From contig CAZRBB010000004.1 in the NCBI GenBank assembly GCA_964598205.1, positions 2,324-66,323 on the forward strand: 64,000 bases of DNA. The letters run 5' to 3'. Origin of the DNA: an uncultured Candidatus Saccharibacteria bacterium. GTDB taxonomy: Bacteria; Patescibacteriota; Minisyncoccia; CAIUEV01; JAHKAQ01. Positions 63,621-63,995 of the stretch are shown here, piece after piece. Position 1 is the stretch's first letter. Each line of letters begins with the position of its first letter. The notes under the pieces were generated by a model, which saw nothing but the letters and a program-made list of their open reading frames with translations, had not been told where the DNA came from and searched no databases. Both the position numbers and the translations under genes were made by a program.

Positions 63621-63995
63621 GTCATTCCGAGCGTTAGCGAGGAATCCCTTTTACTAAAAAAATGAGAGACTATAATTTTTTTGTTTATATTGTTGCTAGC
63701 GATTCAGGAACTTTATATACCGGAGTAACCAACAATCTCAAAAGAAGGATCTGGGAACATAAAAATGGTTTTTTCGAAGGTTTTTCTAAAAAATATAAAT
63801 GTCATAAGTTGATTTTTATGGAAAGATTTCAATATGTTAAAGACGCTATTGTTGCTGAAAAGAGAATTAAGGGATGGAGCCGAAAAAAGAAAGAAGATTT
63901 AATTGGAATAAAGAATCCTTGTTGGAAAGATTTAAGCGTTGGCTTGTAATAATAAGGATGGCTCAAGGGATTCCTCGCTGCGTTCGGAATGACAG
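63621..63995. mobile_element. Compact element: GIY-YIG nuclease ORF bounded by roughly 30-bp terminal inverted repeats
   Basis: Left IR GTCATTCCGAGCGTTAGCGAGGAATCCCTT (63621-63650). Right IR AAGGGATTCCTCGCTGCGTTCGGAATGACAG (63965-63995). The ORF lies between them. Confidence 0.65.
63662..63949 (+). CDS. GIY-YIG nuclease family protein (UPF0213-like), 95 aa
   Basis: [31 protein letters not shown]...KLIFMERF contains the GIY-YIG core (YIV...Y.G, R, E). Confidence 0.75.
   Translation: [95 protein letters not shown]

Follow-up and report, generated by a model that had tools for sequence, protein, structure and literature searches.

The bacterial elements that most resemble the one described here are the REP and REPIN repeats and the RAYT genes that accompany them. 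RAYT genes are flanked by inverted hairpin REPs in a transposon-like unit whose protein and repeats co-evolve; inverted doublets of the repeats are over-represented, and repeat clusters stand beside the RAYT gene (PMC2817692, PMC3116915). The subject of this analysis is a locus with the same general layout and a different enzyme, found near the end of a 64,000-nucleotide (nt) stretch of DNA, here called the window, from an uncultured Candidatus Saccharibacteria bacterium (contig CAZRBB010000004.1, positions 2,324 to 66,323). It holds a gene for a stand-alone GIY-YIG nuclease of 95 amino acids (aa), set between two inverted hairpin repeats that we call arms. With a confidence that falls a little short of even, we read it as the gene-bearing member of a REP/REPIN-like hairpin repeat family whose cognate enzyme would be a minimal nuclease of the UPF0213/Slx1-like GIY-YIG type.

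The nuclease gene has an ATG start and occupies positions 63662-63949 on the forward strand. The left arm (63616-63650, forward strand), recognised both as half of an inverted repeat and by the covariance model R1 (42 bits, E 5e-9), is built of (T)GTC, the hairpin ATTCC-GA-GC-GTTA-GC-GA-GGAAT and an inner extension CCCTT; the right arm (63965-63998, reverse strand; R1 37.4 bits, E 8.9e-8) is the left arm inverted. The repeat proper, GTCATTCCGAGCGTTAGCGAGGAATCCCTT at 63621-63650, returns as its reverse complement at 63965-63994 with one mismatch and a 1-nt indel, and the inverted repeat reaches one base farther outward (TGTCAT...ATGACA). Eleven nt separate the left arm from the ATG, and 15 nt the stop codon from the right arm. 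Directly upstream lies pilD (62678-63544; Pfam A24_N_bact and Peptidase_A24). An original prediction, made from the letters of the window alone, had described a 95-aa open reading frame (ORF) with a GIY-YIG domain, framed by inverted repeats of about 30 base pairs (bp) and lying immediately downstream of pilD, with a miniature copy elsewhere. All of this is borne out, the miniature copy being a doublet of arms without an ORF at 30127-30224, and the repeats are beyond chance: a 13-nt outer core, allowed up to two mismatches, is found at four places in the window where 0.51 would be expected, and none of 100 shuffles reaches four. Run over the 64 kb, R1 gives exactly four strong matches, at E 5e-9 to 9e-8 and 37.4-42 bits; no other match exceeds 12.8 bits. 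The window plus 10 kb contains one GIY-YIG gene. The window end cuts the locus, in that the outer half of the right arm starts a threefold tandem 20-nt repeat running beyond it. On the parent contig, a JGI metagenome contig of 198 kb (locus L001), this tandem triplicate of the arm's outer half plus 9 flanking nt (GTTCGGAATGACAGGGGGTG) lies at 10320-10380 and is followed by an extra forward-strand arm, GTTATTCTGAGCGAAGCGAAGGATTCCTT, at 10382-10410, 26 nt before ligA; together they (10320-10410) correspond to window-equivalent positions ~63981-64071, just past the window end.

As judged from its sequence profile and predicted fold, the protein is a catalytic-domain-only UPF0213/Slx1-like nuclease. 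Pfam GIY-YIG (PF01541) matches residues 6-78 with 50.3 bits against a cutoff of 22.6 (E 2.9e-13); no second Pfam domain and no DNA-binding domain was found in the 95-aa protein. Across 29 homologs there is no variation at Y9, Y19, G21, R29, H33, E66 and N85, the catalytic roles of Y9, Y19, R29, H33 and E66 being ones that we assign from established GIY-YIG knowledge, and a C-terminal NPxWxDL motif with an invariant Asn is conserved in this subfamily. A profile search against PDB sequences returned 1zg2 (UPF0213 protein BH0048, E 1.2e-10) and 1ywl (EF2693, E 9e-8); these and YhbQ, the UPF0213 or prokaryotic Slx1-like proteins, are of the same single-domain type. The AlphaFold2 model (pLDDT 93) is a single domain of topology beta-beta-alpha-alpha-beta-alpha-alpha. 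Its top Foldseek matches are 1zg2, Slx1 (7cq2, 6seh, 4xlg), 1ywl and the UvrC N-terminal domain 1yd6, with 1zg2 and 1ywl best, the Slx1 nuclease domain next and the UvrC domain after it. The closest characterised relatives by fold are the Slx1 nuclease domains (TM ~0.6, root-mean-square deviation 2.3-2.8 A over ~72 residues), and Slx1 is a branched-DNA and flap endonuclease. Thousands of bacterial genomes have genes annotated as a small "GIY-YIG nuclease family protein" of no known role, and NCBIfam and PADLOC gave no family model for this one. A superfamily survey of 2006 placed such proteins in an Slx1 cluster and predicted them to be double-strand-break repair enzymes (PMC1564403), the only published proposal of a role for small GIY-YIG proteins that we found. 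The same survey described an HsdR gene that had recently acquired a GIY-YIG domain by insertion, with flanking repeats unmentioned.

The association of gene and arms was followed in 80 loci, the best matches to the window protein (homologs 47-66% identical) in species-representative genomes. They represent about 20 phyla or lineages in all: the candidate phyla radiation (CPR)/Patescibacteria, Bacteroidota, Acidobacteriota, Alpha-, Gamma- and Deltaproteobacteria, Firmicutes, Planctomycetota, Verrucomicrobiota, Chloroflexota, Nitrospirota, Ignavibacteria, Latescibacterota, Omnitrophota, Elusimicrobiota, Dependentiae and others. A simple scan for GTCAT... finds the plus orientation upstream and the minus orientation downstream of the gene in about half of the 80. 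R1 recognises 284 arms in these loci, with a plus arm no more than 300 nt upstream of the gene in 60 of the 80 and a minus arm no more than 300 nt downstream in 59. Whether copies of the gene carry the inverted repeats was a check proposed at the outset, and most of them do: both correctly oriented arms are present at 49 of the 80 loci and at least one at 70. Within 400 nt of the gene there are 2.5 arms per kb, against 0.098 elsewhere in the same loci (25x), and of the GTCAT occurrences within 150 nt of a homologous ORF 44.7% lead into a perfect hairpin, against 4.1% of those beyond 1 kb. Arms distant from the gene are for the most part convergent doublets, and the gene itself lies where an ordinary convergent doublet has its ~30-nt spacer. 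In some loci the gene is bracketed by entire doublets or by outward-facing arms (L131, L013, L075). The first of these, on a Planktothrix agardhii plasmid (NZ_LR882964.1, 16353-21622), has its GIY-YIG gene flanked by a type IIL MmeI restriction-modification gene on one side and the DISARM gene drmA on the other, with two arm doublets upstream of it and one downstream; two more doublets lie within the annotated MmeI coding sequence (737-905 in the numbering of L131).

Sampling from the side of the arms gives a complementary picture. The exact arm pattern used as query yielded 24 viral-contig loci, none of which has a GIY-YIG homolog (0/24), and at least 120 metagenome-contig loci; among the 120 metagenome matches listed, to which the following counts refer, only 2 of 148 arms have the gene nearby, both from one locus. 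These matches comprise 110 single arms, 43 convergent doublets, 10 divergent pairs and 20 tandem pairs, the convergent doublets having a median spacer of 34 nt, comparable to that of the mini copy in the window, and no other recurrent cargo gene, such as a RAYT gene, was found between the arms. The gene is nearly always accompanied by arms; the arms are seldom accompanied by the gene. Of the original view of the repeats as the element's own, the inverted arms stand and their specificity to this gene does not, the arms being a widespread repeat family.

Side-by-side reading of arms from the homolog loci gives a consensus unit that runs 5'-(T/Y)GTC, then a hairpin whose stem begins with AT, then C-Y-3'. 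Beyond the AT the stem differs freely between lineages with pairing retained; its types include ATTCC...GGAAT, ATCCT...AGGAT and ATTGC...GCAAT as well as ATTCCTGC-GAAA-GCAGGAAT and ATCCTGAAC-TTGA-TTCAGGAT, and the class found in the window is ATTCY-GA-GC-GAA-GC-GA-RGAAT, with a tandem G.A/A.G mismatch. Because the arms were selected by a perfect 5-bp stem, only the inner pairs test covariation without bias. Among these inner pairs the GC, CG, UA and AU types all occur, and the covariation score is 0.414 against 0.159 for shuffled pairs, none of 500 shuffles attaining it; slid partners give no more than 0.129. The base 3' of the stem, which had not been imposed, is C in 104 of 104 arms, and the following base is a pyrimidine in 104 of 104; immediately 5' of GTC stands T in 81% of cases and C in 15%. 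The freedom of the stem sequence, with complementarity kept, favours the view that the arm would be recognised as a structure (hairpin or cruciform) over a duplex palindrome read base by base. Searches against Rfam found only four tRNAs in the window, only chance matches at the element locus at a permissive threshold (nothing at the gathering threshold), and no match across the arms of 14 related loci. The arms of the window sit in intergenic spacers. Several homologs, as called (P0043, P0004, P0023, P0099), have N- or C-terminal extensions that read like arm translations (...LRCAQNDR..., ...DSSLRSE), and it appears from these that annotated ORFs can be extended spuriously into the arms.

The ORF-less doublet consists of a left arm (30127-30160, forward strand; R1 41.5 bits), a 30-nt spacer delimited by reading of the sequence (30161-30190) and a right arm with the stem variant ATCCT/AGGAT (30191-30224, reverse strand; R1 41.7 bits). 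In single-stranded DNA the entire doublet folds as one long hairpin at -17.1 kcal/mol (z -3.8). The first 11 nt of its spacer and the 11 nt between left arm and ATG in the gene copy are alike at 8 of 11 positions, with TAAT following in both, a weak likeness that is only suggestive. The doublet is read as a non-autonomous member of the same repeat family as the gene-bearing locus. It stands in place of the apical ~35 nt of one copy (30066-30274, forward strand, by alignment) of a second repeat, here called family B and taken up below, the other eight copies of which in the window are without a doublet.

Set beside the REP/REPIN-RAYT systems (Nunvar 2010; Bertels & Rainey 2011), the locus shows a series of parallels: a gene between two inverted hairpin repeats, repeats far more numerous than genes, over-represented inverted doublets with short spacers, tandem or clustered arrays beside the gene, a protein that co-evolves with the repeats flanking it, and a short conserved motif 5' of a variable stem. 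The differences are equally plain. The RAYT protein is an IS200/IS605-related HUH/Y1 transposase that works through a covalent intermediate, whereas the enzyme here is a 95-aa hydrolytic GIY-YIG nuclease; the 5' motif is (Y)GTC followed by AT rather than the GTAG of REPs; REP families are largely species-specific, whereas a near-identical arm consensus is found here over many phyla, including the tiny-genome CPR; and copy density is low, with two doublets in 64 kb. Since the enzyme, a GIY-YIG protein by both Pfam and fold, differs from RAYT, the system is REP/RAYT-like in its working and not a member of that group. We found no description of the association between nuclease and repeat in the full-text literature, subscription journals lying outside its coverage.

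The co-evolution of gene and arms is seen when three structural classes of flanking arm are distinguished. In 44 of 53 cases a protein and its nearest neighbour have arms of one and the same class, where 18.4 such cases would be expected and none of 2000 permutations yields as many; they come from one phylum in only 21 of 53. Arm class tracks protein over phylum, and gene and arms therefore change together, across taxonomy. The unit of conserved gene and inverted arms behaves like inserted or selfish DNA and not like an intron- or intein-borne endonuclease, a distinction that the original prediction had drawn and that is supported. The database relatives with which the two window sites can be compared are distant, the best LigA relative of the window organism being 57-58% identical. 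Gene order is conserved in two of them. In one (L105/L106) the pilus operon, pilD and ligA are syntenic and the pilD stop is 9 nt from the ligA ATG, without a GIY-YIG gene; the pilD-ligA spacer in the window lineage is 553 nt. In the other (L104) the genes for RbfA, a DHH phosphoesterase, an AP endonuclease and LigA follow one another directly, with a 4-nt overlap between the DHH and AP-endonuclease genes; those of the window are ~315 nt apart, with the mini doublet in between. R1 finds no arms in any of the three loci. From these junctions, and from the mini doublet inside one of the family-B repeats, we favour insertion at the sites of both the gene copy and the mini doublet; the comparison of empty and occupied sites proposed originally thus gives closed, arm-less junctions at both places, from distant Patescibacteria relatives only and with no clean empty site.

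None of the copies inspected showed a target-site duplication. There is a direct repeat neither at the outer junctions of the full element (...CATTTT/GTCAT ... ATGAC/AGGGGG) nor at those of the mini element (...TTGTTT/GTCAT ... ATGAC/AGATAT), and the outer flanking T/Y of each arm is an inverted extension. The element contains no transposase, the GIY-YIG nuclease being its sole ORF. Arms in tandem array occur in L029 (117-nt period), in L068 (90-nt period), in L084/L085 and just beyond the window, and strains with an identical protein differ in their arrays, having two in one case and three in another of the tandem downstream arms.

Taking the reading of the locus as a REP/REPIN-like element one step further, we propose, on a balance that tips somewhat against us, that it belongs to a multi-phylum, undescribed group of REP/REPIN-like selfish hairpin repeats served by an Slx1-like GIY-YIG protein in place of an HUH transposase, with mobility or amplification through a hydrolytic, structure-specific nuclease and host repair. 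The nuclease would recognise arms that are extruded as hairpins or cruciforms, or that form hairpins in single-stranded DNA, much as Slx1 does branched DNA, and might nick where the hairpin has its conserved base (YGTC / CY). The arms and doublets, and now and then the gene, would spread as host repair or replication copied from another repeat, by gene conversion or template switching, and cut-and-paste transposition would not be the route. We know of no GIY-YIG enzyme with strand-transfer activity, only hydrolytic ones, and because they only hydrolyse DNA, spread needs host repair or replication; such copying would explain both the missing target-site duplications and the frequent tandem arrays. 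Gene and arms would move horizontally as a unit over long times and stay put locally. The functional tie between nuclease and hairpin is one that we infer.

Several points weigh against this interpretation. R1 was trained on arms of the same 80 loci, which were themselves picked as best protein matches, and the first five stem pairs are imposed by the arm selection itself. Single arms from the window fold weakly (-1.7 to -3.7 kcal/mol, with z not significant in three of four), so that the case for the hairpin is one of covariation within the family. The closed junctions come from distant relatives, and an insertion here is indistinguishable from a deletion there. The identical proteins P0107 and P0063, each on more than 30 contigs, have one gene context each; recent transposition of the gene was considered and rejected, since both keep that identical context on every contig. 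The three arm-ORF-arm units of Flavivirga sp. (L052, 4829-6375), 98% alike, form a 503-bp tandem array that includes the spacer; they amount to local tandem amplification, and independent neighbouring insertions were rejected in favour of tandem duplication of the 503-bp unit with its spacer. Cleavage at the arms, finally, is something that we purely infer.

The alternative that survives best, though we think it unlikely, is that a homing-like GIY-YIG gene parasitises independent REP-like doublets, cutting ORF-less ones and being repaired into their spacer by way of arm homology. The GIY-YIG fold is, as is well established, a classic one among homing enzymes, and the protein has the catalytic fold and something of the selfish-DNA flavour of I-TevI, I-BmoI and T4 Seg, being free-standing as the Seg enzymes are. 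The gene lies exactly where a convergent doublet has its spacer, the inner junctions ATCTCTTACGCC and AGAGTAAGAGAT are common to the full and the mini element of L050, the spacer of the window's mini doublet starts like the inner flank of the gene copy, and most arms are without a gene; the newly inserted GIY-YIG domain of an HsdR gene (PMC1564403) also counts in favour. Against this, the protein is no more than a 95-aa catalytic core, without the NUMOD, helix-turn-helix or Zn-finger DNA-binding domain of the GIY-YIG homing endonucleases, and its flanks are dispersed hairpin repeats in place of a split unique target. Only 1-2% of doublets are occupied (among the matches listed), the mini doublet of the window is empty although an intact gene is resident, identical genes are never found in two contexts, and arms of ~35 nt are short for homology-directed copying. 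No association with phages or introns was seen either: no homolog was matched among 50,697 phage records, Rfam showed no intron in the window and no RNA family at the locus, and homologs on plasmids come to 33 records only, mostly chromids or large replicons.

A somewhat less probable explanation is an autonomous GIY-YIG transposon bounded by terminal inverted repeats, whose ORF-less doublets would be internal-deletion derivatives, like MITEs (miniature transposable elements with inverted repeats), mobilised in trans. The arm-ORF-arm layout kept across phyla, the identical orientation of the arms in ORF-less doublets, the disregard of the protein's distribution for taxonomy and the closed junctions in relatives at both window sites all agree with it. 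The unit has some resemblance to known elements. Like IS200/IS605, it has subterminal hairpins for recognition and a favoured base 5' of the left end and lacks a target-site duplication, and like the bacterial MITEs (Correia, ERIC, RUP) it has small, ORF-less, intergenic inverted-repeat doublets forming long hairpins. However, IS200/IS605 ends lie on the same strand and are handled by the Y1 HUH transposase TnpA, whereas the arms here are inverted and there is no TnpB or other second ORF; and MITEs, which descend from DDE insertion sequences, have target-site duplications, whereas the present repeats have none, every arm forms a hairpin of its own and many arms stand singly. The outer flanks of inspected copies are inverted extensions and not direct repeats, strand transfer is not among the established activities of hydrolytic GIY-YIG enzymes, and cut-and-paste of a unit with terminal inverted repeats leaves the common single arms and tandem arrays unexplained, as it does genes flanked by whole doublets or outward-facing arms (L131, L013, L075). 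Nor were identical copies seen in several contexts. Of the small GIY-YIG transposable element originally imagined, then, the conserved unit and its ORF-less copies remain, and the classical transposon with terminal inverted repeats, having neither target-site duplication nor transposase, does not.

It is improbable, in our judgement, that the hairpins benefit the host, as terminators, mRNA stabilisers or protein-binding sites of the sort suggested for REPs, with a housekeeping GIY-YIG nuclease to trim or resolve their secondary structures and the arms beside its gene serving autoregulation. Prokaryotic Slx1-like proteins have been predicted to be repair enzymes (PMC1564403), the position of the gene is stable across samples and the arms keep to intergenic spacers, all as this would have it. 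Two inverted arms are, however, not equivalent in one transcript, and their symmetry belongs to DNA; a promoter and terminator scan, itself uninformative, tied no promoter- or terminator-like signal to the arms at this locus; gene-less arms occur on viral contigs; syntenic relatives have neither arms nor gene at the two sites; and the distribution is patchy and independent of taxonomy. A private regulatory palindrome around a housekeeping UPF0213/YhbQ gene, the alternative named in the original prediction, has the closeness of the arms to the ORF (11 and 15 nt) in its favour and is essentially excluded by the gene-less arms at 30127-30224, by the absence of a nearby gene from 146 of 148 arms (~98% of those sampled by sequence, among the matches listed) and by stems that vary yet stay complementary, unlike the operator of a sequence-reading repressor.

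Some further features of the region deserve record. In the relatives, ligA directly follows either the AP endonuclease gene (L104) or pilD (L105/L106), and in the window genome the RbfA-DHH-AP endonuclease group (28661-31282) is ~33 kb from pilD-ligA (59997-64000); as the placements of ligA differ among relatives, the junction upstream of it is a recurrent rearrangement breakpoint in the lineage. The spacers at both sides of this ligA breakpoint carry arm elements. Tandem AT-rich heptamers (GAATTTY)n stand right after stop codons at no fewer than 12 intergenic sites of the window (26 matches against 2.5 expected), for example at 16020-16048, 19203-19224, 23022-23043, 30005-30033, 32110-32124, 38544-38565 and 63528-63556. 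They precede both window copies of the element and were considered as part of it, which was rejected as they are found at 12 or more other intergenic sites; they are an intergenic signal across the genome, outside the GIY-YIG element.

Family B is a strongly structured repeat of ~150 nt, unrelated to the arms, with nine copies in 64 kb. Its cores lie at 11584(-), 14713(+), 19274(+), 20819(+), 30107(+), 31449(-), 36417(+), 40359(+) and 43897(+), and 19232-19385 is a full-length example. The conserved core, CGGAGTACGCTCGGCCTCGACCGGGCCTCGCTCCACCTTGTTCCTG...CTAAAAAGCTT...GGCGGGAACAAGGAGCCTCC, is enclosed by an outer stem of 18-22 bp whose sequence varies by copy with complementarity kept; the apex is variable, three copies having long additional hairpins there, and one copy folds at -61.7 kcal/mol (z -7.1). 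It has no match in Rfam and may be a new MITE or a structured RNA in this CPR lineage.

If the reading of the locus as a gene-bearing, REP/REPIN-like repeat with its own nuclease is true, it would give a first biological role to the large group of "UPF0213 / GIY-YIG nuclease family protein" genes and would bring a second, mechanistically different enzyme class into the REP/RAYT paradigm. The pairing offers a testable hypothesis, that of a structure-specific nuclease acting on its own repeats, and a protein of 95 aa with a hairpin of ~25 nt makes a compact pair suited to in vitro work. It would also account for a very common origin of spurious ORFs and for short conserved intergenic motifs (GTCATYCYGAGCG...) in many phyla. 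The locus shows, too, that CPR bacteria harbour such elements in their reduced genomes.

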